This document shows positions 8,018 to 20,620 of a stretch of 64,000 nt of DNA, one piece after another. Origin of the DNA: a virus. Under the pieces are notes generated by a model. It saw nothing but the letters and a program-made list of their open reading frames with translations, was not told where the DNA came from and searched no databases. Numbering within the stretch: position 1 is the first letter of the stretch; the number at the start of each line of letters is the position of its first letter. Made by a program: the position numbers and the translations under genes. Location of the stretch: positions 33,231 to 97,230 of IMG/VR virus record IMGVR_UViG_3300036886_000043; one strand, written 5' to 3'.

Positions 8018-11000
8018 ATGCCGGACGCTGTTTACAAAGAGTACCCTCTCATCTTCCAAAGCAAGGGAATCTTCGCCCGCCAGGTCGATGACCTTGTGGA
8101 CCCGCAAGGGCTTTTGAATGAGGATAATGTTGAGGAGTTGGCAGAAGGCGCTTATGCTCAAAAATTGGGCAGTGTCCTCGTAAACGCCCAGGGGACCATC
8201 GGCCAGCCGGTCTACCCGTTATCGGGGAAAGTGGTCAGCCTATCCAAATTAGGCCAGTTGGCGGGGGCATACGCAAGATATGCGGTTACGGCAGACGGGG
8301 CTCTCTGGCGCAGATCGTTGCTTTCGGCGGGGCAGTTCACAAAGATTTCTACATCCTTCAGCGGGAGCCCTTGCTCGATTCAGTCTTACTGCAACACGGA
8401 TTTTACCTCAGTATCGACGGAATTTTTTGCAGACGCCGCAGGGATGTTCAAGGACGACGGAACCTTTGCGGCTCCACAGCAGATGGGCATCTTCCAGCCC
8501 CAGTTTCCAGTGCAGGCGCAGGCGCAGCCGCCCTCATCCGTGATACTTGACAACTATGTGACCTCGGCGGGGAGCTATTCATACACCGGGATCTCTGGAG
8601 GAACCAACGCAGGATACGTGAATACGACGATCCCTGCTGGAGTTCCCGCCGCAGGGCTTCAATCGGTAACGGTGGTCGATCCTACGCAGCCGGGCCTATT
8701 CCAGCTTTTGACTGTTGACTCAGGCGGAAATGCGGAGACGGTCCTTGTCCTCTTAGTGACTCCCACGGGGTTTGTGGCGAACTTCACAAAGATTCACTCA
8801 AGTGGAGTCACGGTCACGAGCGCAGACCTCTCGGTTTCGGTTCCTGCAAGCACTACGGCAACAATAAGTGCCTCATTCGGCATCCTTCCATGTGGGGCTA
8901 AACCGATACTTGTGAACTGGCCCGTTACAAACCAGCCACTACAGCAAGCGGACTACCTTGGCTTGTATCTTTTTGTCAGTGATCCAACCCAGATACAGAG
9001 CATCACGCTCAAGCTCGATTGCGGGGATGGTTCATTCGATAGTGATTATTTCTACAAGGTCATTGCTCAAGGTCCACTCCAAAATTTGGTATCTTCGGCA
9101 ACCTCTTCAACAGACCCAACAACTGCATTGACGGACGCGCTCCTGTCAGACAGCCTCAATCTCTACGGCAACCAAGCCGGAGGGATCGGTGAACTGAATA
9201 CCGGGCTCGACAACTGGACACCGCTCCTCTTTCAACTCTCCGACTTTGCCGGCTCAGGCCGTGCGGACTTCAACGATCCGGTCTACAACTGGGCCAACGT
9301 CAACGGCTACCAGATTCAGATTGTCACCAACGACAACACGAGCGTGACGGTCAATCTTGCGGCCCTGGTGCTCTTTGGCGGAGCCGGTCCAGATACGCTC
9401 GGAGGCGTAGCTTACGACTACGTGTGGACGTTTTTCAATCCGGTGGATGGAACAGAGTCAAACCCGTCAATGATTGTGACGAACCAGAACCCGCCGAATC
9501 AGACGAACCGGGTCTATCCGCGGCGCCAGCCGGTGTTGTTGAACATGGACGTTACCACTTACGGACCATTAGGGCAGTTGCAAGACGGTCAGATCGGGTA
9601 TCTGAGAATCTACAGGCGAGGTGGAACACTCGGGGACAACTTCCGAAGGGTAGATCAAATTCCGGTCAACATAGCGGCCGGGGGAATCGTCCAGTACATC
9701 GACACAGCGCCGGACTACCTAGTAGCCGGAGCAGATATTGTCTCGTTTACCAACGATGTTCCGGTCCCGAGCCTACTCCCGGTCCCGGTCAACACGACAT
9801 TGATGACTCCGATCTATACAGAAAATCAGGTGACGAACGTCTTCCCTGTGTCGATGGCAAACATCTCTGTGCGCCAGCAGGTAACAATCGGAAGTCCTAC
9901 TGCAATAGCAAACAACTTTGAAACCGTAATTGTTCTAACCCTCGACGAAGCAAGTTTTACTGCGTTTGTGCAAAACGCTCATGCGGCTGGAGAGCCGGTA
10001 CAGGCAAGCTATCAGGTAGGCCAGCCGGTTTATGGAATGGTCATAGCCTTCAACAAGGCATGGTATTGGGGAGATCCGAATAACCCGTCTACCCTCTACT
10101 TCAGCACCGGAAATGCTCCGCAGTACGTGGGAGAGGCGAACAACGTCATTGTCTCCACCCCGGACGACTACATCACAACAGTTAAGCCTTACAAGGGAAA
10201 CATCTTCGTCAGTTGCGTCAAAAGCGGGTGGTGGATGATTCCTCCGGGCTCTCCTGCCAGCCAGCCGCCGTATCCTACGGCCTGCGTACATGGCTGCGTG
10301 GCTCCGTTCGGGGCCGTGGCGACAGAGGAAATGATTCTCTATCAGGCGGCGGACGGAATACGCGCTTTCGCTGGAGGGGCATCGGAGTATATGAGTCTCC
10401 CGATTGAATTCATTTTTCAAGGCGTGGGTTCTACTCCGATTGTCGAAGCGGATCAAACGAAGTTGTCTCAGACGGTGGCCGCGTATTGGAACTCGATGGT
10501 ATTTTTCAGCTACATCGGGACGGATGGGAACCGGCATCGAGTGATTGCCCACGCTCAATACAAGAGGTTCAGGAATGACGACGTGGACGCTCAATGCCTC
10601 TTGCTTGAGGCCGACACGAATCAGTTGCTCTATGGAGACTCAAACGGACTGGTTCACATCGACCGTCAGAACCTTCCCTATGACCAGGTAAACAGCGGCG
10701 GTGTGCTGGCCGCGGGACCGATTGCGATCAATTTGCAAACAGCCTATAGCTTCCAAGGAAGCCCCGCGAACCAGAAACAGTATCAGGCCGTTCAGATCGA
10801 CTGCAACACAGGGGGCCAAACGCTCAACGTCAACCTTCTCTTCAATGATGGAGAGATCACAGTCGCGCTCGGAACGATCAGCAATGCACAGCGCGGCAAG
10901 ATCAATCTGCCAGTGAACTTAGGGTTGGGCCAACAGGCGTATAAGATTTCGCTTCAGATCACCGGCAACGTGTCTGCCTTCGCGTACCTCTATCAAGCCG

Positions 11001-11359
11001 CAGTTGAGGCTCTGGTGCTGCCGAGGACGCGGAAAACCGTAGATACCTACGACCTGAATTGCGGATTTGCAGACTCGAAATACTGCAAGGATTTTTGGGC
11101 ACAGTACACGGCTACGGCTCCGATCAACGTGCAAGTGTATTATGACGACAACGCAACCCCAGGGTTCACTTTCACGATGCCTCAAGCCGGAGGCGTCAGG
11201 AACCCTCTTAGGGTAAGATTACCGGCAGTCTCATTCAGGACGATCCGCGTGGTAGCGGAATCGACAGGGGACTTTCTCTGGTGGCCCGATACCTGTCTTT
11301 GGGTCAAGCCCCAGTGCGCTTCGAGGGGCTATGAGAAGGTGTTGATTGTTGAGAACTAA
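8018..11359 (+). CDS. large virion protein, probably tail nozzle / packaged-DNA stabilisation type
   Basis: 1113 aa, beta-rich, propeller-like motifs (PSTLYFS, GCVAPFG, LLYGDSNG); lies upstream of GNAT and ejection genes as in podoviruses. Confidence 0.6.
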   Translation: MPDAVYKEYPLIFQSKGIFARQVDDLVDPQGLLNEDNVEELAEGAYAQKLGSVLVNAQGTIGQPVYPLSGKVVSLSKLGQLAGAYARYAVTADGALWRRSLLSAGQFTKISTSFSGSPCSIQSYCNTDFTSVSTEFFADAAGMFKDDGTFAAPQQMGIFQPQFPVQAQAQPPSSVILDNYVTSAGSYSYTGISGGTNAGYVNTTIPAGVPAAGLQSVTVVDPTQPGLFQLLTVDSGGNAETVLVLLVTPTGFVANFTKIHSSGVTVTSADLSVSVPASTTATISASFGILPCGAKPILVNWPVTNQPLQQADYLGLYLFVSDPTQIQSITLKLDCGDGSFDSDYFYKVIAQGPLQNLVSSATSSTDPTTALTDALLSDSLNLYGNQAGGIGELNTGLDNWTPLLFQLSDFAGSGRADFNDPVYNWANVNGYQIQIVTNDNTSVTVNLAALVLFGGAGPDTLGGVAYDYVWTFFNPVDGTESNPSMIVTNQNPPNQTNRVYPRRQPVLLNMDVTTYGPLGQLQDGQIGYLRIYRRGGTLGDNFRRVDQIPVNIAAGGIVQYIDTAPDYLVAGADIVSFTNDVPVPSLLPVPVNTTLMTPIYTENQVTNVFPVSMANISVRQQVTIGSPTAIANNFETVIVLTLDEASFTAFVQNAHAAGEPVQASYQVGQPVYGMVIAFNKAWYWGDPNNPSTLYFSTGNAPQYVGEANNVIVSTPDDYITTVKPYKGNIFVSCVKSGWWMIPPGSPASQPPYPTACVHGCVAPFGAVATEEMILYQAADGIRAFAGGASEYMSLPIEFIFQGVGSTPIVEADQTKLSQTVAAYWNSMVFFSYIGTDGNRHRVIAHAQYKRFRNDDVDAQCLLLEADTNQLLYGDSNGLVHIDRQNLPYDQVNSGGVLAAGPIAINLQTAYSFQGSPANQKQYQAVQIDCNTGGQTLNVNLLFNDGEITVALGTISNAQRGKINLPVNLGLGQQAYKISLQITGNVSAFAYLYQAAVEALVLPRTRKTVDTYDLNCGFADSKYCKDFWAQYTATAPINVQVYYDDNATPGFTFTMPQAGGVRNPLRVRLPAVSFRTIRVVAESTGDFLWWPDTCLWVKPQCASRGYEKVLIVEN

Positions 11360-11385
11360 GGTGTATGCTGTATCTGAGGTGATTT

Positions 11386-11553
11386 ATGCTCAACATCATT
11401 TTGGTAATTCTGATGTTTCTGTGCGGATTTGGCGGATATGCGATCCCAGTTACGCAGCCGGCCGGTTTCCGGTATGGCGTCGGTCTTCTCGGCGCTGTGC
11501 TTTTTATCTTGTTTTGCCTCATCAACCTTGGCCTGATTCACCCAGGGCTATAA
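11386..11553 (+). CDS. small two-helix membrane protein
   Basis: MLNIILVILMFLCGFGG...LLGAVLFILFCLINLGLIHPGL; GAGGTG RBS. Confidence 0.7.
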   Translation: MLNIILVILMFLCGFGGYAIPVTQPAGFRYGVGLLGAVLFILFCLINLGLIHPGL

Positions 11554-11556
11554 GCG

Positions 11557-11721
11557 ATGATTATCTTGCTCATCATTGTTCTAGTTCTGCTCTTTGGCGG
11601 CGGCTTCGGTTACTACGGCCACACTCAATGGGGCGCGAATAACGTCTATGCAGGGCCGGGAATCGGCCTTGGAACCATCCTGATTATCCTGCTGATTCTG
11701 TTCCTGCTCGGCGTCATTTGA
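11557..11721 (+). CDS. DUF3309-like small membrane protein
   Basis: MIILLIIVLVLLFGGGFGYYGHTQWG...GIGLGTILIILLILFLLGVI. Confidence 0.75.
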   Translation: MIILLIIVLVLLFGGGFGYYGHTQWGANNVYAGPGIGLGTILIILLILFLLGVI

Positions 11722-11816
11722 GTCGTGTCCGCATGTGCATGTAGGACAGTGTTTAGTCGTTCCCGCTCTGTGGAAATCTCTCCGGTTGTCGAGAAGGGGT
11801 TACTATTCAGGTAGCC

Positions 11817-11845
11817 TTGACGCAAATCATTTTCCGTGCGATGAT
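11817..11845 (+). promoter_or_regulatory. promoter P1 of tRNA block 1
   Basis: TTGACG-17 nt-(TG)GATGAT, 6 nt before the leader ATG (leaderless). Confidence 0.7.
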
Positions 11846-11851
11846 TTTGAT

Positions 11852-11923
11852 ATGAGATTTGACCGCAACAGTTTATGCCTCTCCTATTCACTCCTGTCGA
11901 GTGACGGGGAGGCTGCGGTCTGA
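11852..11923 (+). CDS. attenuator leader peptide 1 MRFDRNSLCLSYSLLSSDGEAAV
   Basis: 11 consecutive S/L/C/Y codons matching the downstream tRNAs; lies between promoter and terminator. Confidence 0.85.
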   Translation: MRFDRNSLCLSYSLLSSDGEAAV

Positions 11924-11950
11924 TTCCAAAGTTTGGAATTTCAGCGAAGC

Positions 11951-11974
11951 GGCCTCCAGAAATGGAGGCTTTTT
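11951..11974 (+). terminator. attenuator 1 intrinsic terminator
   Basis: GGCCTCCA-GAAA-TGGAGGC-TTTTT. Confidence 0.9.
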
Positions 11975-11979
11975 GTTGT

Positions 11980-12063
11980 GCGGGATTGGCGAAACGGCAG
12001 CCGCGCCCGATTTAAGATCGGGTGTCTTAGGACGTGGGAGTTCAAGTCTCCCATCCCGCACCA
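11980..12063 (+). tRNA. trnL: tRNA-Leu(TAA)
   Basis: GCGGGAT/ATCCCGC; CCCGA-TTTAAGA-TCGGG; long variable arm; CCA. Confidence 0.95.
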
Positions 12064-12064
12064 T

Positions 12065-12141
12065 GTATCGGAAGGTAAAGTTTTGGAACCAGTGGTCCGC
12101 AAAACCACTTTTAGCCGGTGGGACTCCGGCCCGGTACTCCA
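12065..12141 (+). tRNA. trnC: tRNA-Cys(GCA), atypical
   Basis: GTATCGG/CCGGTAC, U73, GTGGT-CCGCAAA-ACCAC; T-loop TGGGACT; C33. Confidence 0.8.
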
Positions 12142-12153
12142 AAGTTTAGTAGT

Positions 12154-12232
12154 GCTCGCGTAGCCCAATTTGGCAGGAGGCACTTCATTCAAAACGAAGA
12201 CAGTGCTGGTTCAAATCCAGCCGCGAGTACCA
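12154..12232 (+). tRNA. trnL: tRNA-Leu(CAA), short variable loop
   Basis: GCTCGCG/CGCGAGT; loop TTCAAAA; variable region ACAGT. Confidence 0.9.
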
Positions 12233-12240
12233 AAATATGT

Positions 12241-12319
12241 GCCCCGTTAGCCCAATTGGCAGGAGGCGTCTGACTTAGGATCAGAACAGTGATGAGTTCG
12301 AATCTCTCACGGGGTACCA
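12241..12319 (+). tRNA. trnL: tRNA-Leu(TAG), short variable loop
   Basis: GCCCCGT/ACGGGGT; TCTGA-CTTAGGA-TCAGA; variable region ACAGT. Confidence 0.92.
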
Positions 12320-12328
12320 AAATTTAGA

Positions 12329-12357
12329 TTGCAACGGGTACCAATCTACTGTAAAAT
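12329..12357 (+). promoter_or_regulatory. promoter of the inserted endonuclease gene
   Basis: TTGCAA-17 nt-TAAAAT, 6 nt before ATG 12364. Confidence 0.75.
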
Positions 12358-12363
12358 ATTGGT

Positions 12364-12963
12364 ATGAATGGTGATTCGAGTATTTGCAATGGATGTGGTT
12401 TAAGTGAGCCAGAAGTGAGATTTCGATTGCGGAAGGCGAACGGGAAAACTTACAGAAAACACTTGTGTACAAAATGTGATGATGAATATCAAAAGAAGTA
12501 CACTAAACCTCAAGGCGTAAAAGATAGGAATAGAAAATCGTATCTGAAAAGAAAGGAGAGAAGAGCACGGGGAGAAATAGTCGAGATTTTCCTTCTTGAG
12601 GACTGTCGAAGAATTGACAGAAAAAAAGGTATCAAATCCGATTTAGACTCTGAATATATTGCGGAGATAATAAAGGATGGATGCGCGTATTGCGGAGATA
12701 TAGAATCACGCATTGGGCTTGATCGGATAGATAATTCACTGGGCCACATGAAGGGAAATGTTAACGCCTGTTGTATGAGATGTAATCTTATTCGTAGGGA
12801 TATGCCATACGAAGCATGGCTGATTGTAGCGCCCACGATGAAGATTGCGAGAGAATCAAAAGCGTTTGGGAATTGGAATGTGCTTTTTGGAAACAAGAAG
12901 AAAACGGAGCGCGGGCCGGACGATAAGGCAACGGGTTGCTACCCCGCACAGCCGCAAGGCTGA
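12364..12963 (+). CDS. HNH/His-Me-type homing endonuclease
   Basis: CxxC pairs; CAYCG...GLDRIDNSLGHMKGNVNACCMRCN; AT-rich insertion between tRNA genes. Confidence 0.85.
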   Translation: MNGDSSICNGCGLSEPEVRFRLRKANGKTYRKHLCTKCDDEYQKKYTKPQGVKDRNRKSYLKRKERRARGEIVEIFLLEDCRRIDRKKGIKSDLDSEYIAEIIKDGCAYCGDIESRIGLDRIDNSLGHMKGNVNACCMRCNLIRRDMPYEAWLIVAPTMKIARESKAFGNWNVLFGNKKKTERGPDDKATGCYPAQPQG

Positions 12964-12991
12964 CTGAGTTTGACTCTCAGGCGCTCCGCCA
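12906..12991 (+). tRNA. trnS: tRNA-Ser(GCT)
   Basis: GGAGCGC/GCGCTCC, G73, loop TTGCTAC, variable arm CAGCC-GCAA-GGCTG. Confidence 0.88.
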
Positions 12992-12995
12992 GTTC

Positions 12996-13080
12996 GGAAG
13001 GTACCGCTGAAAGGTCGGCAAACGGTCCTGAAAACCGTGGCTCCTTCGGGATGGGCGTTCGATTCGTCTACCTTCCGCCA
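12996..13080 (+). tRNA. trnS: tRNA-Ser(TGA)
   Basis: GGAAGGT(A)/(T)ACCTTCC; ACGGT-CCTGAAA-ACCGT; variable arm; C33. Confidence 0.9.
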
Positions 13081-13085
13081 AGTTT

Positions 13086-13172
13086 GGGAGTGATGCTCTG
13101 TAGGGAGAGCAGCAGGCCGTAACCCTGCCGTCACTTGTGGCATAGGGGGTTCGATTCCCTCCACTCCCACCA
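13086..13172 (+). tRNA. trnY: tRNA-Tyr(GTA)
   Basis: GGGAGTG/CACTCCC; GCAGG-CCGTAAC-CCTGC; variable arm; C33. Confidence 0.9.
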
Positions 13173-13175
13173 TAC

Positions 13176-13204
13176 TTGTCAACACGGAAGAGTAGTGGTA
13201 TACT
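13176..13204 (+). promoter_or_regulatory. internal promoter without leader peptide, upstream of the initiator tRNA
   Basis: TTGTCA-17 nt-(TG)TATACT. Confidence 0.8.
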
Positions 13205-13209
13205 GAAAT

Positions 13210-13284
13210 CGCGGGTTGGTAGCGCAGCGTCATACGTCAGGCTCATACCCTGAAGATCCGGTGCAAATCCGGTACCCGCAACCA
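13210..13284 (+). tRNA. trnfM: tRNA-fMet(CAT), initiator type
   Basis: C1.A72 mismatch (CGCGGGT/ACCCGCA); TCAGG-CTCATAC-CCTGA. Confidence 0.85.
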
Positions 13285-13285
13285 A

Positions 13286-13361
13286 GGTCACGTCGTCTAA
13301 CTGGAAGGATACTTCCCTGTCTAGGAAGCTGGCGCGGGTTCGATTCCCGTCGTGATCGCCA
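13286..13361 (+). tRNA. trnD: tRNA-Asp(GTC)
   Basis: GGTCACG/CGTGATC, G73; CTTCC-CTGTCTA-GGAAG. Confidence 0.93.
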
Positions 13362-13367
13362 AGTTTA

Positions 13368-13446
13368 GCCGATGCACTCTGTACTGGATTCGGAGCACTC
13401 CCCTTCAAGGAGTTGGATGCGAGTTCGATTCTCGTCGTCGGCGCCA
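13368..13446 (+). tRNA. trnE: tRNA-Glu(TTC)
   Basis: GCCGATG/CGTCGGC; ACTCC-CCTTCAA-GGAGT; C33. Confidence 0.88.
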
Positions 13447-13454
13447 AGTTTTAC

Positions 13455-13531
13455 GGGGTCACCGTCTAATTGGTCTGGACGCCAGATTCTCAATCTGGAA
13501 ACTGTGAGTTCGATCCTCACTGGCCCTACCA
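13455..13531 (+). tRNA. trnE: tRNA-Glu(CTC)
   Basis: GGGGTCA/TGGCCCT; CCAGA-TTCTCAA-TCTGG. Confidence 0.93.
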
Positions 13532-13540
13532 GAAAATGAT

Positions 13541-13569
13541 TTGACAGAAATTGCGAACGGCGGTACAGT
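13541..13569 (+). promoter_or_regulatory. promoter P2 of tRNA block 2
   Basis: TTGACA-17 nt-TACAGT. Confidence 0.85.
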
Positions 13570-13579
13570 AGAAAACGAG

Positions 13580-13648
13580 ATGAAAAACCGAGTCAATCAC
13601 GGATTTACACCAGCGACGGCGCAACCGACGCAGGGTAATCCTATGTAG
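13580..13648 (+). CDS. attenuator leader peptide 2 MKNRVNHGFTPATAQPTQGNPM
   Basis: contains a cognate codon for all 12 block-2 tRNAs; lies between promoter and terminator. Confidence 0.88.
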   Translation: MKNRVNHGFTPATAQPTQGNPM

Positions 13649-13674
13649 CGGCTCGTGGAGTTTGAAGCAAAGCG

Positions 13675-13705
13675 CCCACCGAGCCAATCAGCCGGTGGGT
13701 TTTTT
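13675..13705 (+). terminator. attenuator 2 intrinsic terminator
   Basis: CCCACCG...CGGTGGG-TTTTTT. Confidence 0.88.
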
Positions 13706-13713
13706 GTTGATGT

Positions 13714-13789
13714 TCCAGCGTAGCAAAAAGGTAATGCGCCGCACTGTTAATGCGGAAATGTGCAGGTTCGAGTCCTGCCGCTGGAGCCA
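13714..13789 (+). tRNA. trnN: tRNA-Asn(GTT)
   Basis: TCCAGCG/CGCTGGA; CCGCA-CTGTTAA-TGCGG. Confidence 0.95.
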
Positions 13790-13798
13790 GTTTGAAGT

Positions 13799-13873
13799 TG
13801 CCCGTTCGTTCATGTGGCAGGACGGCTGACTCTGGATCAGCGGAGCGAGGTTCAAGTCCTCGACGGGCAGCCA
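13799..13873 (+). tRNA. trnQ: tRNA-Gln(CTG)
   Basis: TGCCCGT/ACGGGCA; GCTGA-CTCTGGA-TCAGC. Confidence 0.95.
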
Positions 13874-13881
13874 AGTTTTAC

Positions 13882-13957
13882 AGGGAGATGGCCGAGCGGC
13901 TTAGGCGACAGCCTTTGGAACTGTCTCAGGTAGGTTCGACTCCTACTCTCCCTGCCA
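13882..13957 (+). tRNA. trnQ: tRNA-Gln(TTG)
   Basis: AGGGAGA/TCTCCCT; loop CTTTGGA. Confidence 0.93.
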
Positions 13958-13958
13958 T

Positions 13959-14034
13959 GCGGACGTAGCTCAATTGGTAGAGCACAGCGTTGCCAATGCT
14001 GAGGTTGCCGGATCGTTGCCGGTCGTTCGCTCCA
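13959..14034 (+). tRNA. trnG: tRNA-Gly(GCC)
   Basis: GCGGACG/CGTTCGC, U73; loop TTGCCAA; T-loop ATCGTTG. Confidence 0.93.
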
Positions 14035-14119
14035 AATTTTGGAGGTTGACATGCCGCACAGGTATCATTTCAATGCCGATCTCCGAGAAGTGTACAGAAG
14101 GCTGGCGGGACAATTTCGA

Positions 14120-14194
14120 GCACCGTTAGTTGAGTCGGCACAACACGACACTCGTAACGTCGAGGCTCCGGTTCGAGGCCGGGACGGTGCTCCA
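14120..14194 (+). tRNA. trnT: tRNA-Thr(CGT)
   Basis: GCACCGT/ACGGTGC; loop CTCGTAA. Confidence 0.9.
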
Positions 14195-14208
14195 GAATTG
14201 GAAGGTGA

Positions 14209-14748
14209 GTGATGAATTTGATGCGGAAGCCGGTATTGCAGTTGAATGCAAGCTACGAGCCGCTTCGCATCATCGCGGCAAGAAGGGCATTGACGCTCAT
14301 AACCAAGGGCGTAGCCGTGGTGGAAGTGCCAACCAGCACAGTAGTCTATCCTGGCATCTACTTGCCCTCAGTGATTCGGTTGCGGACTTACCGGCATGTG
14401 CCTATTAGGATGCAGGTGATGAGCCGCAAGAACATTCTCCTTCGGGATGGCGGCCGCTGCATGTATTGCGGACAGAGGTCAAACGAATTGACGCTTGACC
14501 ATGTGATTCCGCGTTCCCGTGGCGGATTGAATACGTGGGACAATCTTGTGGCTTGCTGCAAACGCGACAATCACAAGAAGAACGACAGGACTCCAGAGGA
14601 AGCGGGAATGAACTTGATTCACAGGCCGCTTCCGCAAACGATCCACACGCCGCGGTTTGTTCTACGGTCTATGGGTTTGGAAGTAAATGAGTGGAGCCCG
14701 TACTTGTGGGCCGACTCCGAAGGCGACAAGAAGTATGCGTTTAACTGA
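14209..14748 (+). CDS. HNH endonuclease (McrA/HNH_5-like)
   Basis: VLQLNASYEPL...LPSVIRL...RDGGRCMYCG...TLDHVIPRSRGG...WDNLVACCKRDNHKK. Confidence 0.93.
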   Translation: MMNLMRKPVLQLNASYEPLRIIAARRALTLITKGVAVVEVPTSTVVYPGIYLPSVIRLRTYRHVPIRMQVMSRKNILLRDGGRCMYCGQRSNELTLDHVIPRSRGGLNTWDNLVACCKRDNHKKNDRTPEEAGMNLIHRPLPQTIHTPRFVLRSMGLEVNEWSPYLWADSEGDKKYAFN

Positions 14749-14820
14749 GCCGGGTGAACATCGAATGTTGCGGGCGCTTGTATCGCTTGCTAGTGGGTTC
14801 GACTCCCACATCCGGCCCCA
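14749..14820 (+). tRNA. trnT: tRNA-Thr(TGT), compact fold
   Basis: GCCGGGT/ATCCGGC; D arm AACA-TCGAA-TGTT; 6-7-bp anticodon stem, loop CTTGTAT. Confidence 0.82.
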
Positions 14821-14830
14821 ACAAGTTCAT

Positions 14831-14905
14831 GGGGAATATCGTTCAGCGATAGGACGCTAAGTTGTGGCCTTAGTCACCGCAGTTTGATTCTGCGTATTCC
14901 CCCCA
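14831..14905 (+). tRNA. trnH: tRNA-His(GTG)
   Basis: G-1:C73; CTAAG-TTGTGGC-CTTAG. Confidence 0.92.
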
Positions 14906-14918
14906 AGTTTTAAGTAGT

Positions 14919-14993
14919 GGGCGTGTGGTGCTAATGGGAACACATCCGGCCTGCACCCGGAAGTTGAGAGTTCGATTCTCTCCATGTCCACCA
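14919..14993 (+). tRNA. trnA: tRNA-Ala(TGC)
   Basis: G3:U70; TCCGG-CCTGCAC-CCGGA; C33. Confidence 0.93.
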
Positions 14994-14999
14994 AGTTTT

Positions 15000-15075
15000 G
15001 CCGACTTAGCTGATGAGGTCATAGCGGTCGCCTGAAGAGCGATAGAAGCCCGCTCGATACGGGCAGTCGGCACCA
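15000..15075 (+). tRNA. trnF: tRNA-Phe(GAA)
   Basis: GCCGACT/AGTCGGC; loop CTGAAGA. Confidence 0.92.
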
Positions 15076-15076
15076 T

Positions 15077-15154
15077 CGGTGTGTAGCGTAGTCTGCTTAA
15101 CGCGCTCCGTTCGGGACGGAGAGATCGCAGGTCGAAATCCTGCCACGCCGACCA
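15077..15154 (+). tRNA. trnP: tRNA-Pro(CGG)
   Basis: CGGTGTG/CACGCCG; CTCCG-TTCGGGA-CGGAG. Confidence 0.93.
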
Positions 15155-15160
15155 GTTTAC

Positions 15161-15234
15161 CGGGGTGTAGTGTAAAGGAAACATCCGTGGCCTGGGACCA
15201 CGTGTTGGGCTTTCGAGATGCCCCACCCCGACCA
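15161..15234 (+). tRNA. trnP: tRNA-Pro(TGG)
   Basis: CGGGGTG/CACCCCG; CGTGG-CCTGGGA-CCACG; C33. Confidence 0.88.
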
Positions 15235-15240
15235 ATTTAC

Positions 15241-15315
15241 GGCCCGTTCGTTCAATGGACAGGACTTCGGATTACGAATCCGACAATCAGAGTTCGACTC
15301 TCTGGCGGGCTACCA
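15241..15315 (+). tRNA. trnR: tRNA-Arg(ACG)
   Basis: GGCCCGT/GCGGGCT; TCGGA-TTACGAA-TCCGA; A20. Confidence 0.95.
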
Positions 15316-15316
15316 C

Positions 15317-15345
15317 TTGCAAGAAAAGAAAAGTTGATGTACAGT
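15317..15345 (+). promoter_or_regulatory. promoter P3 of tRNA block 3
   Basis: TTGCAA-17 nt-TACAGT, 7 nt before the leader ATG. Confidence 0.82.
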
Positions 15346-15352
15346 GGAATTC

Positions 15353-15421
15353 ATGCAGATCAGGACCAAACACGGAATAACCAGAATGACCAAGCGGGTC
15401 ATTTGGGGGATCGTGTGTTGA
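15353..15421 (+). CDS. attenuator leader peptide 3 MQIRTKHGITRMTKRVIWGIVC
   Basis: contains a cognate codon for all 12 block-3 tRNAs; lies between promoter and terminator. Confidence 0.9.
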   Translation: MQIRTKHGITRMTKRVIWGIVC

Positions 15422-15447
15422 GGGTCTGAGCATTTTGGTACGCACAG

Positions 15448-15472
15448 ACCTTCGCTCAGGCGAGGGTTTTTT
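15448..15472 (+). terminator. attenuator 3 intrinsic terminator
   Basis: ACCTTCGC-TCAG-GCGAGGG-TTTTTT. Confidence 0.9.
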
Positions 15473-15488
15473 ATTGCTCTTTGAAAAT

Positions 15489-15563
15489 AGGGGAGTGCTG
15501 GCGGCACAGCGGTTGGTCTCCAAAACCAACGTCACGGCGGTTCGAGTCCGCTCTCCCCTGCCA
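15489..15563 (+). tRNA. trnW: tRNA-Trp(CCA), compact fold
   Basis: AGGGGAG/CTCCCCT, G73; GTTGGT-CTCCAAA-ACCAAC. Confidence 0.9.
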
Positions 15564-15568
15564 TTTTT

Positions 15569-15637
15569 GGCACGTACCCAAGGCGGGAAGCGATCCTCAT
15601 AAGATCGTAAACTGGTTCGAGTCCAGGCGTGCTACCA
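15569..15637 (+). tRNA. trnM: tRNA with CAT anticodon (probably elongator Met), 69 nt
   Basis: GGCACGT/GCGTGCT; GCGATC-CTCATAA-GATCGT; minimal D arm. Confidence 0.8.
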
Positions 15638-15642
15638 GTTTT

Positions 15643-15736
15643 GGGCGATAGCACCGGCCGTGCGGCGGAGTCTTATAAACTCTGGAGAGCGCCAGATTAG
15701 CGCAACGGGAAGGATCGACACCTTCATCGCCTACCA
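15643..15736 (+). tRNA. trnI: tRNA-Ile(TAT) with long variable arm
   Basis: GGGCGAT/ATCGCCT; CGGAGT-CTTATAA-ACTCTG; GCGC-CAGATTA-GCGC arm. Confidence 0.8.
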
Positions 15737-15739
15737 TGT

Positions 15740-15814
15740 GGGTCGCAGATGTTTTTGGCGGCATACCCGGCTCTTACCCGGAATGGCGGGGTTCGACTCC
15801 CCGGCGACCCACCA
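15740..15814 (+). tRNA. trnK: tRNA-Lys(CTT)
   Basis: GGGTCGC/GCGACCC; CCGG-CTCTTAC-CCGG. Confidence 0.9.
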
Positions 15815-15823
15815 TCTGTTTTC

Positions 15824-15897
15824 GGACTGCGAGTGTGATGGTGCATAACGCCCTTTTAAGGCGTTTGGATAGAGTTCGATTCTCTAGCGGTCCACCA
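15824..15897 (+). tRNA. trnK: tRNA-Lys(TTT)
   Basis: GGACTGC/GCGGTCC; ACGCC-CTTTTAA-GGCGT. Confidence 0.9.
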
Positions 15898-15898
15898 T

Positions 15899-15973
15899 GG
15901 CCCTATAGCTCAAGGGGATAGAGTGCGGTCTTCTAAGCCGTCGATCACCGTTCGACTCGGTGTAGGGCTCCCA
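15899..15973 (+). tRNA. trnR: tRNA-Arg(TCT)
   Basis: GGCCCTA/TAGGGCT; loop CTTCTAA; A20. Confidence 0.92.
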
Positions 15974-15978
15974 GTTTT

Positions 15979-16055
15979 GCCGCTGTATCTCTCCGGTTTC
16001 CTAAACCGGCAAGAGTAGTTGGATGACGCCGGTTCGACTCCGGCCAGCGGCCCCA
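15979..16055 (+). tRNA. trnR: tRNA-Arg(CCT) with no 5' D arm (rearranged core)
   Basis: GCCGCTG/CAGCGGC; CCGGT-TTCCTAA-ACCGG; perfect T arm; CCA. Confidence 0.8.
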
Positions 16056-16060
16056 GGTTT

Positions 16061-16138
16061 GCTGCCGTATTCGGTTCTGGTTCCGAACCAGAGGGCCGTA
16101 GATGGAGAAGGCAGGTTCGAGTCCTGTCGGCAGCGCCA
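16061..16138 (+). tRNA. trnR: tRNA-Arg(CCG) with no 5' D arm (rearranged core)
   Basis: GCTGCCG/CGGCAGC; TCTGG-TTCCGAA-CCAGA; canonical T arm; CCA. Confidence 0.8.
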
Positions 16139-16143
16139 GTTTA

Positions 16144-16219
16144 GCCGGGTTCGCCCAAAGGCTTAGGGCCGATGGTCTACACCCATCTGATAGGGGTTCG
16201 AGTCCTCTACCCGGCACCA
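16144..16219 (+). tRNA. trnV: tRNA-Val(TAC)
   Basis: GCCGGGT/ACCCGGC; GATGG-TCTACAC-CCATC; C33. Confidence 0.92.
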
Positions 16220-16224
16220 AGATT

Positions 16225-16298
16225 GTCGATGTAGCTCAGTGGTAGAGCACCGCAATGGTAATGCGGCGACGAGGGTCCGATTCCCTCCTTCGGCTCCA
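16225..16298 (+). tRNA. trnT: tRNA-Thr(GGT)
   Basis: TAGCTCAGTGGTAGAGC D arm; CCGCA-ATGGTAA-TGCGG. Confidence 0.92.
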
Positions 16299-16302
16299 TT
16301 TT

Positions 16303-16377
16303 GCCGATGTAGCTCAATGGCAGAGCATTCGCTTGATAAGCGAAAGGTCAGTGGATCAGTACCACTCATCGGCACCA
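16303..16377 (+). tRNA. trnI: tRNA-Ile(GAT)
   Basis: GCCGATG/CATCGGC; TTCGC-TTGATAA-GCGAA. Confidence 0.93.
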
Positions 16378-16383
16378 AGTTGA

Positions 16384-16458
16384 GCGGGATTAGCCAAGTG
16401 GAAAGGCAATGGGCTTCCAACCCATTATGCGTCGGTTCAACCCCGACATCCCGCTCCA
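16384..16458 (+). tRNA. trnG: tRNA-Gly(TCC)
   Basis: GCGGGAT/ATCCCGC, U73; ATGGG-CTTCCAA-CCCAT. Confidence 0.94.
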
Positions 16459-16489
16459 CTTTTCTGCCAACAAGCGTTATACTACTTTC

Positions 16490-17425
16490 ATGCCGAAGTC
16501 GCCCAAACTCGGAAAGATTACATTCTCCTCTTTGTCTCTTCCAGAGCAAATCCAGATGAGCAACTTGCAGGATGCCGTGAACATCCTCGGCGGTCATTCG
16601 GGGGAAGTCGAGTTAAGCAATCATCTAAACCTCGGCGGGAACAAAATAACGAACGTGGCGGCGCCGGCCGCGGATAGCGATGTGTTGACGAGCGGAGCGG
16701 CAGAAACAAAGTATTCCGCGGCGGCTTTACGTCCGCAGCTTGAGTCGAGCGGGACGCATCCATTCGTAGGCTACAGACAAGTCAATAATCAAGGACAGCG
16801 CGAAAAAACCTCAAGCTGGCTCAACGAGCTTCTCTCTACCCCTCCGAACTCCAACAACATCAATCCCATCGTCAGTTCTTCGGGAGGCTCAACGAGCGTC
16901 ACGATCCCGGCCAGCATCTTGCAGATGGGGGATGGAACCACGCGATACCTTCCTTCGCGGACGGACACGTTGACCAACCCGGCAAGCTACTCCATTACCT
17001 CGTTTACGATTGCTTTGGGAGTGGCAACGGTGGTTTTGTCCTCGACTCCATCGCCGGCTTTGGCTGCGCCTACGGTGGTGTACATTTCAGGGACGAGTGA
17101 GATTGACGGGACGTTCCCGATTGCAAGCATTGTCAGCCCGACGACGTTCACGATCAACGTAAGCAGTGGGGTGTCTGGCACTGGAGGGACGGTAGAGACG
17201 GGAGGAATCTGCTACTATTACCTCAACAAGTCATTCCAGAAGGTGATGCTATCCGTCCTTCCGTCATCTTCAGACACCCCGTTTAGGCGTCTCGGAATTT
17301 CTGGAGACGGATACCAGTTGCTTGCGGTTGTCAGCATCAATTCGAGCGGAACTGTCCAAGTGGGGACGGCCGGAGGGGGAACGCCGAGCGTCGTTAGCAC
17401 AGCCAATGCAGGAAGCAGGTTCTAA
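16490..17425 (+). CDS. probable virion/tail-associated protein
   Basis: LNLGGNKITNVAAP fibre-like motif, S/T/G-rich; true start probably ATG 16490, 6 nt after TATACT. Confidence 0.6.
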   Translation: MPKSPKLGKITFSSLSLPEQIQMSNLQDAVNILGGHSGEVELSNHLNLGGNKITNVAAPAADSDVLTSGAAETKYSAAALRPQLESSGTHPFVGYRQVNNQGQREKTSSWLNELLSTPPNSNNINPIVSSSGGSTSVTIPASILQMGDGTTRYLPSRTDTLTNPASYSITSFTIALGVATVVLSSTPSPALAAPTVVYISGTSEIDGTFPIASIVSPTTFTINVSSGVSGTGGTVETGGICYYYLNKSFQKVMLSVLPSSSDTPFRRLGISGDGYQLLAVVSINSSGTVQVGTAGGGTPSVVSTANAGSRF

Positions 17426-17630
17426 TGGGAATTCGAATTACAAAAGAACAAGAAGTCCATGATGGAGAAAAGCTATGGCGCATCAAAGCAACATGGGACT
17501 CTAAGCATGGAGGAACTGAATCTCATGTACGTTTTGCCAAAACTCTAGTTGCGCAGCGAAGGATAGTCTACGGATTTAAGATGAAGTTCCGTATGGGGGA
17601 GTACGACTGATCCAAAAATCAGGAGGAAAT

Positions 17631-18275
17631 ATGGAAACGAAAATTCTCGAAGCGGTTGAAACGAGTAAGATGTCAGTTTGTTCACCAGTCAAAGTATGGA
17701 AGTTCCCAGAACCGGGAAAGAACTACATCTTGTCGGCAGACCCCTGCTTGGGGACTGAAACAGATAGCTCCAATGCCGCAATCGAAGTAATTGATGCGGA
17801 GACTGGGGAACAGTGTGCAGAGTTTGCTCAGGTGGTGTCTCCTGAAAACCTAGCACCGATAATCTTCGATTTGGCGAAGAGATACAATAATGCGGAAGTG
17901 GCGGTAGAGGTAAACAGTGTCGGCATGTTGACGAACAAACTCCTGATTCACAAGTTTAATTACGAAAACATCTACCGCTTCAAACGGCTTGATCGCCTTC
18001 AAAATACCATGACGGACATCGTTGGATGGTGGACCGATTACAAGTCTAAGGCGCAAATGGAAGCCATATTCAGGGATTTTTTGGGGAATAATATAGGATT
18101 GATCCACAGTAAAAAATTGCTAAATGAGATTCTTTTCTACAACGAAGATAGTCCTAAACCGAATGATCGGTTTGCAGCCATGATGATTGCTCTGGCCGTT
18201 CGGGACGAGTTACTGAAGTCTAGGGCTTCTATTCTGAAGGCAGAAGAGAAGATGAGGAATAGGGGAGTGGATTGA
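17631..18275 (+). CDS. stand-alone terminase large-subunit nuclease-like domain
   Basis: YILSADPCLG, GEQCAEF, LAKRYNNAEVAVEVN, GWWT, NDRFAAMMIAL; no ATPase domain. Confidence 0.75.
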   Translation: METKILEAVETSKMSVCSPVKVWKFPEPGKNYILSADPCLGTETDSSNAAIEVIDAETGEQCAEFAQVVSPENLAPIIFDLAKRYNNAEVAVEVNSVGMLTNKLLIHKFNYENIYRFKRLDRLQNTMTDIVGWWTDYKSKAQMEAIFRDFLGNNIGLIHSKKLLNEILFYNEDSPKPNDRFAAMMIALAVRDELLKSRASILKAEEKMRNRGVD

Positions 18276-19419: not shown

Positions 19420-20027
19420 TGGACGGCTGGAAGTACATGACGAAGAATGCAGCGGTGGTTCCGTTCTCCCCCGGAACCGTGGTCTATCAAGATGGGATGC
19501 TCTCGACGCTTTACTACCGCAGCAAGGAACTTGGGCGTCTGGAGTATATGTTCTGTGGCGACAAGCCAGGTCATGACCAGTTCATCCGAATGTTCGACGA
19601 GTCCAAAAGGATTACTCAGATACTTTGCGAGGTTGAGAATCAGGGCACACCGCAGGAGGTTTGTCATCCGGCTGGATGTTCTTGGGTTGAGCTTTCAAAG
19701 GGCGTCGATGGCGAGAGAGCCGCAATGTGCGGGTTTGCGTTTATCAAGCGAAGCCGCTACATGGTTGATTTGGGGATGCTTGGAATTGCATATTGGATGG
19801 AGGGGCTGAAGATCGACGTTCTTCATGGCGTTTTGCTTGAGGAGAACAAGGCGGCGCAACACTTTGCTGAAAGGCTCGGGTTCAAAAAAGAAGGCGTAGT
19901 CCGACGTTTTCACTCCTACCGAGGCAAGTTGGTTTCTGCGGTTGCCATGATGATTGAGAAGGAATTTTTCCTCCCCGGATACGAAGAATGGTATGAATCG
20001 AAGAAAGTTGTAGAAACTGTAGAGTGA
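19416..20027 (+). CDS. GNAT (RimJ/RimL-like) acetyltransferase-fold protein
   Basis: ENKAAQHFAERLGFKKEGVVR; sits just before the ejection genes. Confidence 0.8.
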   Translation: MMDGWKYMTKNAAVVPFSPGTVVYQDGMLSTLYYRSKELGRLEYMFCGDKPGHDQFIRMFDESKRITQILCEVENQGTPQEVCHPAGCSWVELSKGVDGERAAMCGFAFIKRSRYMVDLGMLGIAYWMEGLKIDVLHGVLLEENKAAQHFAERLGFKKEGVVRRFHSYRGKLVSAVAMMIEKEFFLPGYEEWYESKKVVETVE

Positions 20028-20061
20028 TTTAACGTAACCTCCCATTTAGGGAGAGACTTCC

Positions 20062-20619
20062 TTGAGCAAGCCAACAGGCGAGGACCAGCAACTTCAGGCC
20101 AGTCAGGCGAATCTTGCCGACGTAATGAGTGCAACCGGCAAGCAATCGGCCCAAGAGGGTGCAACTCTCTTCAATCTCGGTCTGCCTGGATTAGAGAAGT
20201 CGGAATCGTATTATGGCAAACTGGCCAGCGGCGACCCGAACGCATTGGCAAGGGCAAACGCGCCAGCTATCCAGTCGATTACCGGACAATCCGATCAACA
20301 ACTCAAAAACATCATGCAGAACTCCCCGAGGGGGGGAGCGCGAGACCTTGCGGCCTCGGAAGCGGATTTGTCTAAGGGCGCTGGTATCAGCAACCTTACG
20401 ACAGGCTCGTACACAAATGCCTTTCCGTCCCTCGCCAGCCTTGGAGGGCAGAACGTGGGGCAGGGGAATCAGGCTACGTCCACGGGCATTTCTGGTATGA
20501 ATGCCGCGGCTAACCAGTACGGACAGTTGCAGCAGTTGAATAACGAGCAGAAGGCGACTCAGCTTGGTCTGTTCTCGTCCTTGGCCGGAGCCGGTGCATC
20601 GGCAGCGGGGGCGATGTGA
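20062..20619 (+). CDS. probable DNA ejection (internal virion) protein
   Basis: A/G/Q/S-rich helical protein with a hydrophobic Gly/Ala C-terminus. Confidence 0.6.
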   Translation: MSKPTGEDQQLQASQANLADVMSATGKQSAQEGATLFNLGLPGLEKSESYYGKLASGDPNALARANAPAIQSITGQSDQQLKNIMQNSPRGGARDLAASEADLSKGAGISNLTTGSYTNAFPSLASLGGQNVGQGNQATSTGISGMNAAANQYGQLQQLNNEQKATQLGLFSSLAGAGASAAGAM

Positions 20620-20620
20620 T

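Follow-up and report, generated by a model that had tools for sequence, protein, structure and literature searches.

An accessory tRNA array in an uncultured phage is preceded by what we read as a ribosome-mediated leader-peptide attenuator, which would gate the first block of tRNA genes in the array by sensing the supply of the block's own tRNAs. We put the probability of this reading at about 0.7. The short open reading frame (ORF), its codon bias, the alternative RNA helices, their dependence on the ribosome footprint and the conservation in relatives with co-variation were all computed. From there we infer a start site, translation of the ORF and a response to tRNA supply.

The record is a 97,230-bp virus genome of IMG/VR with direct terminal repeats, rated complete, and the window, that is, the whole stretch of 64,000 nt analysed here, comprises its bases 33231-97230. 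Many peat and permafrost metagenomes hold near-identical DNA, and the source is an uncultured phage of peat soil. About 35 tRNA genes form an array at 11980-16458, between a gene for a 1113-aa protein (8018-11359) and one for a 311-aa protein (16490-17425). Since close relatives with both flanking genes carry one tRNA-Met only between them, the array is regarded as an accessory module. Its first block and the genes directly beyond it are as follows.

11980..13172, + strand: tRNA block controlled by attenuator 1 in the proposed reading
11980-12063, + strand: tRNA-Leu(UAA), ARAGORN at default settings
12065-12141, + strand: tRNA-Cys(GCA), aligned to the ARAGORN-called tRNA-Cys of the relative L002
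12154-12232, + strand: tRNA-Leu(CAA), ARAGORN at default settings
12241-12319, + strand: tRNA-Leu(UAG), ARAGORN at default settings
12364-12963, + strand: HNH-like ORF inserted in the block
12906-12991, + strand: tRNA-Ser(GCU), ARAGORN at relaxed threshold only
12996-13080, + strand: tRNA-Ser(UGA), ARAGORN at relaxed threshold only
13086-13172, + strand: tRNA-Tyr(GUA), ARAGORN at default settings
13176..13204, + strand: separate promoter TTGTCA-17-TATACT, with no leader, directly 5' of the fMet-Asp-Glu-Glu genes (pattern scan)
13210-13284: tRNA-Met(cat), ARAGORN at relaxed threshold only

The Asp and the two Glu tRNAs that follow were called by ARAGORN at default settings, so that all tRNAs which a first-pass annotation of this DNA had listed downstream are present. 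The tRNA-Cys is missed by both ARAGORN and Rfam because of its odd T-loop; it is homologous to the tRNA-Cys of L002 and keeps the GCA anticodon. The HNH-like ORF is absent at this place in the relatives, and a promoter-like site at 12329-12357 belongs to it. As this ORF with its own promoter-like site splits the block, the two Ser tRNAs and the Tyr tRNA may have a second route of expression. The promoter at 13176-13204 is kept in L002 and L006 but not in L193, i.e. in three of four phages including the window, and it marks the end of what attenuator 1 would control alone.

Upstream of the block, the following elements make up attenuator 1.

11817..11845, + strand: sigma-70-type promoter, -35 box TTGACG (11817-22), 17-nt spacer, TGn-extended -10 box GATGAT (11840-45) (pattern scan)
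11852..11923, + strand: leader ORF 1 of 23 sense codons, ATG at 11852 and TGA at 11921-23, without a Shine-Dalgarno sequence
11861-67 and 11877-84, + strand: segment 1, GACCGCA and GCCUCUCC, within the sensor codons (minimum-energy fold)
11906..11920, + strand: segment 2, GGGGAGGCUGCGGUC, ending 1 nt before the stop codon
11922..11940, + strand: middle hairpin with a copy of the palindrome TTCCAAANTTTGGAA / TTCCAAAGTTTGGAA at 11924-38, which begins directly after the stop codon
11949..11958, + strand: segment 3, GCGGCCUCCA, both the 5' half of the terminator and a partner of segment 2
11952..11974, + strand: intrinsic terminator with stem GCCUCCA/UGGAGGC (11952-11969), loop GAAA and U5 (pattern scan and fold)

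The first evidence comes from the codons of the leader. Direct reading confirmed codons 7-18 and codon 20 as they had been annotated. Codons 7-17 (11870-11902) are AGT TTA TGC CTC TCC TAT TCA CTC CTG TCG AGT, an unbroken run of 11 Ser, Leu, Cys and Tyr codons, and with a background frequency of 0.19 for these four residues in the long ORFs of the phage, none of 200,000 random peptides equals it (P < 5e-6). With strict wobble the tRNAs of the block read 8 of 22 leader codons (background 0.135, P = 0.006), and with four-way U34 wobble they read 12 of 22 (P = 0.001). The match to the other tRNA blocks is at or below chance (all P > 0.4), and among the six frames it is the frame of the ATG that scores highest for the match to the block. 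Six of the seven block tRNAs find a codon in leader 1, the exception being Leu(CAA). The strict match is modest, and no tRNA of the block is a standard reader of CTC or TCC; the caveats raised at annotation, namely the missing TTG codon for Leu(CAA) and the four-way wobble needed for CTC and TCC, are thus correct for this window. A longer in-frame ORF of 62 aa from the GTG at 11735 was considered and rejected: the relatives have in-frame stops 39-51 nt 5' of the ATG, so that the extension is not conserved, and the 62-aa product has no Pfam match.

The annotation had also named Asp and Glu among the sensed residues, and this part finds no support, because codons 18 and 20 sit where a stalled ribosome masks segment 2 and because a separate promoter, with no leader, serves the fMet-Asp-Glu-Glu genes.

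Regarding the start of the transcript, the promoter at 11817-11845 predicts a start at about 11852, which is the A of the leader ATG. No Shine-Dalgarno sequence is present in any of the four known versions of leader 1, and since the start predicted from the extended -10 box coincides with the A of the ATG, initiation would be leaderless. We infer this leaderless translation from the promoter-like match in the sequence, a class of match of which the region holds no excess (6 by pattern scan, 4.7 expected); its -35 box, its TGn and its spacing to the ATG are kept in L002, L006 and L193.

The second evidence is the RNA itself. Left unconstrained, the RNA of 11852-11979 folds at -60.6 kcal/mol (z = -6.9), and none of 200 shuffles is as good. 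This minimum-energy fold holds helix 1:2, its UCACUC/GAGUGA cap, the middle hairpin and the terminator, and helix 1:2 pairs 11877-84 with 11906-13 and is extended by 11861-67 with 11914-20. Segment 2 has two possible partners, segment 1 and segment 3, and it reaches the second of them through 11908-16. The helix so made, 2:3, is formed by GGAGGCUGC (11908-16) with GCGGCCUCC (11949-57) and appears in the constrained folds. All of the helices 1:2, 2:3 and 3:4 and the cap that had been proposed at annotation therefore exist in the unconstrained and constrained folds taken together. As a duplex helix 2:3 reaches -20.1 kcal/mol, where dinucleotide shuffles of these bases give -11.3 +/- 2.4 (P = 0.002), and the terminator hairpin alone, at -12.2 kcal/mol, is weaker. 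The terminator stem is GC-rich and has 7-8 bp; it ends 10 nt, and the U5 ends 5 nt, before tRNA-Leu(UAA).

The effect of a ribosome on these helices was computed by masking 28 nt around each A-site codon and taking the ensemble probability of the terminator in an RNA that ends at the terminator stem, which gave the following probabilities.

No ribosome: 0.99
A site at codons 2-5: at least 0.97
A site at codons 6-7: 0.57-0.65
A site at codons 8-10: 0.85-0.90
A site at codons 11-13: 0.12-0.14
A site at codons 14-15: 0.52-0.75
A site from codon 16 to the stop: 0.97-0.99 (0.98 at the stop)

The responsive window of codons 6-15 coincides with the Ser/Leu/Cys/Tyr run of codons 7-17. The footprint folds support the trp-type geometry suggested at annotation, in which a ribosome stalled on this run masks segment 1 and frees segment 2, and whether the terminator forms depends on the masking of 11870-11900, its probability falling from 0.99 to 0.12. 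In an RNA that ends before segment 4, stalls at codons 2-15 leave segment 3 83-86% paired, against 37% when the ribosome sits at the stop. At equilibrium, the switch is only weak for stalls at codons 8-10, hence any real switch would be partly kinetic and depend on the order of cotranscriptional folding.

The third evidence is conservation. A search with the 1113-aa neighbour protein found the viral contigs L002 and L006, in which this protein is 77-78% identical, and the metagenome contig L193, in which it is 53% identical and which has a tRNA array with the position and order of that in the window. The leader 1 cassette is common to all three before tRNA-Leu(UAA), with a TTGAC -35 box, a TGn-extended -10 box, a start codon 7-8 nt further on, an ORF of 20-21 codons, a TGA, the palindrome hairpin and a terminator. 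The order of residues in their leader peptides is scrambled, and each still has Leu, Ser, Cys or Tyr at 11-13 of 20 residues (P = 1e-5 to 4e-4). The TTG codon missing from the window is present in leader 1 of L002, L006 and L193 as well as in a permafrost variant described below. The block of L193 has nine tRNAs, among them four Ser isoacceptors, and its 20-codon leader, with the codons AGT/AGC, TCC, TCA, TCG, TTA, TTG, CTG, TGC and TAT, samples all nine (P = 5e-4). By this comparison of sequences, L193 suggests that the TCC and TCG codons in the leader of the window date from a fuller set of Ser tRNAs.

The helices are conserved in a way that goes with compensatory change. The terminator of L006 and L002 is GCCGCCGGUC/GAUCGGCGGC, a different and longer hairpin than the GCCUCCA/UGGAGGC of the window, and segment 2 co-varies with it, from GGAGGCUGC in the window to GGGCCGGGGGCU in L006 and L002. 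The new 2:3 duplex of these two adjoins the stop codon and reaches -21.5 and -19.4 kcal/mol (P = 0.002 and 0.006), respectively. Footprint masking in L006 brings the terminator probability to 0.01 at codons 6-9; in L193 it is 0.00 up to codon 12, 0.02 at codon 13 and 0.88-0.99 from codon 14 to the stop. Helix 2:3 is found in all four homologues and helix 1:2 in three, being weak in L193, where the 2:3 read-through fold wins even without a ribosome; helix 1:2 is for this reason the least conserved part. RNAalifold applied to the four leader 1 versions set the terminators out of register, and terminators were therefore taken from per-sequence folds.

A natural variant gives a finer view. Among the 12 itemised of the 18 differences between a permafrost contig and the window, seven are substitutions in codons 2-18, four of them synonymous (including TTA to TTG and CTC to CTA) and the others N6S, S7D and D18E, while segments 2 and 3 are unchanged and one change falls in the palindrome, at its unpaired centre. 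The terminator stem has grown from 7 to 9 bp by the insertion of a G and a C that pair with each other. Judged from sequence, this pattern is as would be expected if selection acts on the helices and the codon set, not on the peptide.

One further relative, L188, has a tRNA-Leu after the same neighbouring gene and no recognisable leader, and its contig ends soon after. A search with a DNA pattern of the ATG region gave chance hits, among them L147, which lies inside a coding gene, and the search with a leader-3 DNA pattern found L193 as the sole contig. Among cultured phages, a scan of four unrelated phages and two chance loci, which is a small sample and no proof of absence, found no comparable cassette in the tRNA arrays of Streptomyces Daubenski, Cronobacter CR9, Gordonia Sixama and Pseudomonas 16Q.

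The array of the window has two more cassettes of the same kind.

13541..13705, + strand: sister attenuator 2 with promoter, ORF 13580-13648 and terminator 13675-13699 plus U-run, before the genes from Asn through Arg(ACG)
15317..15472, + strand: sister attenuator 3 with promoter, ORF 15353-15421 and terminator 15449-15466 plus U-run, before the genes from Trp through Gly(UCC)

The codons of leader 2 match its own block at 16 of 21 positions (P = 6e-5) and those of leader 3 at 17 of 21 (P = 5e-7). Each samples all 12 of its own tRNAs, and the cross-block matches are at or below chance. The fit extends to isoacceptors: ACA/ACG and CGA in leader 2 go with Thr(UGU, CGU) and Arg(ACG), and ACC, AGA, AGG, CGG and ATA in leader 3 with Thr(GGU), Arg(UCU, CCU, CCG) and Ile(UAU). 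The resulting three-by-three diagonal of leaders and blocks is, at the level of sequence, the strongest argument that the leaders would be read by ribosomes and linked to their own tRNAs.

Both sister leaders are conserved in L006 and L193. In these two contigs the 5' region of leader 3 is longer and includes a Shine-Dalgarno-like AGG(U/A)GG or AGGA, which speaks for translation. The antiterminator of attenuator 3 overlaps the stop codon. The helices are less uniform: the 2:3 duplexes of leader 2 in the window and of leader 3 in L006 are no better than shuffles, and leader 2 of L006 and L193 shows no equilibrium switch, its 11-bp terminators always winning, so that an antiterminator appears there by a kinetic proxy only.

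The middle hairpin of attenuator 1 deserves separate mention. Its palindrome has 21 copies in the genome against about 0.3 expected in the window, an over-representation of about 80-fold, and genome-wide a copy is typically found after a stop codon and ahead of the ribosome-binding site that follows. In all four phages (the window, L002, L006 and L193) a copy stands directly 3' of the leader 1 TGA, and its hairpin shows a compensatory change from U-A to G-C across the leader 1 versions. In the read-through fold the hairpin is enclosed by helix 2:3 and forms the tip of the 2:3 structure. Leaders 2 and 3 are without the palindrome, which may be a second layer of control.

Based on these results, attenuator 1 probably measures the speed at which codons for Leu, Ser, Cys and Tyr are decoded, with tRNAs made only when these codons are read slowly. 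Transcription would start at or beside the leader ATG, and a ribosome would load onto the leaderless 5' end. If this ribosome reaches the UGA, it would cover segment 2, the 3:4 terminator would form, and RNA polymerase would stop 5-10 nt before tRNA-Leu. When charged Leu, Ser, Cys or Tyr tRNA is scarce, the ribosome would stall in codons of about 6-15, covering segment 1 and leaving segment 2 free; the latter would pair with segment 3 around the palindrome hairpin, so that the terminator is blocked and the tRNA genes are transcribed. The tRNAs so made would relieve the shortage, which is a negative feedback. Without any ribosome, helix 1:2 would form and transcription would terminate. The three leaders together could go further, and we hold the chance to be even that they are codon indexes of their blocks, with nearly all tRNA species of a block sampled by its leader, such that shortage of any one species opens its own block alone and the array becomes a self-tuning, ribosome-sensed replacement for depleted tRNAs. 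The shortage in this case could come from a mismatch with host codon usage, from host shut-off or from an anticodon nuclease defence.

Several other readings have to be weighed against a sensor of the block's own tRNAs. A point against it is that amino-acid starvation would open the switch too, and extra tRNA would be of no help then. The cassette could be translated and switch, but report general translation capacity or amino-acid starvation, with all tRNA output raised when ribosomes slow; segment 2 becomes free with a stall at any of the first ~15 codons, and published work on Anabaena describes a tRNA array induced by translational stress in general (PMC8421152). We consider this unlikely, since each of the three leaders uses the codons of its own block and avoids the codons of the two remaining blocks, even between isoacceptors, which would be needless for a general gauge. 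Slightly less likely still is that the hairpin does no more than end one transcription unit constitutively, or insulate it from the next, after which a promoter restarts transcription, while the ORF goes untranslated and owes its composition to the helices. The lack of a Shine-Dalgarno sequence, the promoter-like sites that are not enriched and the constraint which GC-rich helices put on a sequence all agree with such an element. However, a terminator that separates a promoter from the only genes it serves would shut these off unless overridden, and the composition signal is specific to the frame, survives both the full replacement of the helices in L006 and L002 and the scrambling of residue order, and recurs with other amino-acid sets in leaders 2 and 3.

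The remaining two readings do without the ribosome as the main sensor. In one of them, whether the transcript continues is decided by a factor specific for the palindrome TTCCAAAGTTTGGAA, be it an RNase or a protein of the phage or the host, and the ORF is secondary. Its strong over-representation between stop codons and ribosome-binding sites genome-wide and its exact position kept in all four leader 1 versions would suit such a factor, but leaders 2 and 3 share the logic of the cassette without the palindrome, and the codon match and the complementarity of segments 2 and 3 would be left unexplained; we rate the idea as improbable, and the palindrome could be a second layer instead of a rival. 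In the other, which we regard as hardly credible, the leader RNA binds uncharged tRNAs directly in the manner of a T-box, with codon-like triplets as specifiers and no ribosome. T-boxes (RF00230) are 200-300 nt long, have conserved motifs, bind tRNA without a ribosome and control synthetase and amino-acid genes. Like attenuator 1 as we read it, they sense tRNA, and its status sets the choice between terminator and antiterminator. Here the region has 125 nt without a specifier loop or T-box motif, neither a T-box nor another Rfam leader family was found at E <= 1, and the eleven in-frame codons between ATG and stop point to decoding by a ribosome.

Known relatives of attenuator 1 in mechanism are the enterobacterial attenuators, trp, his, leu and pheA as well as the multivalent thr and ilvGMEDA, which are leader peptides of amino-acid operons. 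The likeness includes a short ORF rich in codons linked to the product, overlapping helices 1:2, 2:3 and 3:4, a terminator just 5' of the first controlled gene, and an antiterminator that would be blocked when the ribosome reaches the stop codon; one leader would sense several amino acids, which thr and ilv do too. Unlike in those operons, the targets are phage tRNA genes instead of proteins of biosynthesis or aminoacylation, so that the sensed molecule and the product would be of the same class. Four amino acids (at most 12 tRNA species in the sister leaders) are represented by one to a few codons each, not by a homopolymeric run, and leader 1 has neither a Shine-Dalgarno sequence nor an Rfam leader match. 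In fact, cmscan against Rfam over 9000-18000 at E <= 1 returned tRNA-type and chance hits only, with nothing at 11817-11979, and no match to Trp_leader, His_leader, Leu_leader, Thr_leader or T-box (RF00230) was among them. Attenuator 1 as proposed works as the leader-peptide family does, and extends it to a new class of targets, the tRNA genes.

A precedent for leaderless initiation of leader 1, by analogy, is found in mycobacteria, where leaderless polycysteine short ORFs are cysteine-responsive attenuators (bioRxiv 10.1101/834739). They share with leader 1 an ORF at the 5' end of the transcript (predicted here), the lack of a Shine-Dalgarno sequence and, in the proposed reading, the reporting of aminoacyl-tRNA supply. 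The mycobacterial ORFs have runs of Cys codons and genes of cysteine-related proteins as targets (10.1101/834739), whereas in leader 1 codon 9 is the sole one for Cys, amid codons for Leu, Ser and Tyr, the terminator is explicit and tRNA genes are the target. With respect to the array, the trn operon of Anabaena sp. PCC 7120, a long tRNA array that is silent until translation is impaired (PMC8421152), is the only regulated tRNA array that our literature search found in print. It resembles the present case as an accessory tRNA array that is switched on, as the one here would be, under translation trouble. Unlike here, it is under the ribbon-helix-helix repressor TrcR, whose binding sites are direct repeats that overlie the -10 box and the start site (PMC10272220), and has no attenuator; the Anabaena trn paper leaves attenuation, leader peptide and terminator unmentioned and reports no codon-specific sensing. 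A full-text literature search, with most subscription journals outside it, gave no report of attenuators on tRNA genes.

The finding touches the question of why phages carry tRNA genes and how these are timed and dosed. To our knowledge, there is essentially no description of phage tRNA arrays whose expression is regulated. An attenuator on tRNA genes would be a direct feedback loop in which the product is the very molecule that is measured, and if the proposed reading is true, the principle of the trp operon would be at work in viruses and outside amino-acid metabolism. If the leaders are indeed codon indexes of their blocks, this would be a type of control undescribed for tRNA genes in any organism. 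The cassette also yields a rule for searching metagenomes, that is, to look for a short ORF which spells out in its codons the tRNAs encoded beyond a terminator, and the idea that phage tRNAs answer the depletion or cleavage of tRNAs would become testable through a 130-nt element.

The array contains tRNA genes of unusual form, one tRNA-Thr gene that ARAGORN did not call, and two inserted ORFs. The features concerned in the array and just upstream of it, by window position, are the following.

11471-11501, terminator-like hairpin preceding the DUF3309 gene
11557-11721, gene for a 54-aa DUF3309 small membrane protein, directly upstream of attenuator 1
12364-12963, ORF within the tRNA array
14209-14748, ORF within the tRNA array
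14749-14825, tRNA-Thr(UGU)
15643-15736, tRNA-Ile(UAU), 94 nt
15978-16055, tRNA-Arg-like gene, anticodon CCU
16060-16138, tRNA-Arg-like gene, anticodon CCG

In both tRNA-Arg-like genes the acceptor, anticodon and T arms are normal and a CCA end is present. The position of the D arm is occupied by 7-8 nt only, and about 18 extra nucleotides lie 3' of the anticodon arm. The CCG gene is kept in the distant relative L193 (at 20346-20424 of that contig), and the cognate codons of the pair, AGG and CGG, are present in leader 3, the predicted leader ORF before the Trp through Gly(UCC) block. The tRNA-Thr(UGU) gene was not called by ARAGORN in the window, its homologue in the related contig L006 was called, and Rfam gave only a weak match to the tymovirus tRNA-like element; its cognate codon ACA occurs in leader 2, which precedes the Asn through Arg(ACG) block. 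The tRNA-Ile(UAU) gene of another relative (L202, 1921-2014) has the same length as that of the window. An additional hairpin, atypical for an Ile tRNA, was seen in the variable region of tRNA-Ile(UAU).

The codon index of a leader and the tRNA block behind it are sometimes out of step. In leader 3 of L193 (19713-19787) the codon ACC occurs three times and ACT once, but the search of the L193 block at 19863-20715 yielded no Thr(GGU) tRNA, whereas the window counterpart of that block has one.

As to the two inserted ORFs, Pfam identifies 14209-14748 as an HNH endonuclease and gives no match for 12364-12963. The latter ORF has abundant Cys motifs, its 3' end extends over the beginning of tRNA-Ser(GCU), and relatives have no corresponding insertion.

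At the genome-wide level, the palindromic sequence TTCCAAANTTTGGAA shows an over-representation of about 80-fold, with 21 sites in the whole genome, 15 of them in the window, for example:

1890, 7299, 18923, 25355, 37911, 40975 and 47711, palindrome sites

Most copies occupy a short interval that separates a stop codon from the ribosome-binding site following it, and several copies are also found on related contigs. The palindrome might serve as an operator, as a site of RNA processing or in translational coupling.

The close relatives L003, L004, L005 and L199-L201 share the flanking genes, but where the window carries the 35-gene array (11360-16489) they have a single tRNA-Met. The tRNA array and its three proposed attenuators form a module that has been gained or lost.
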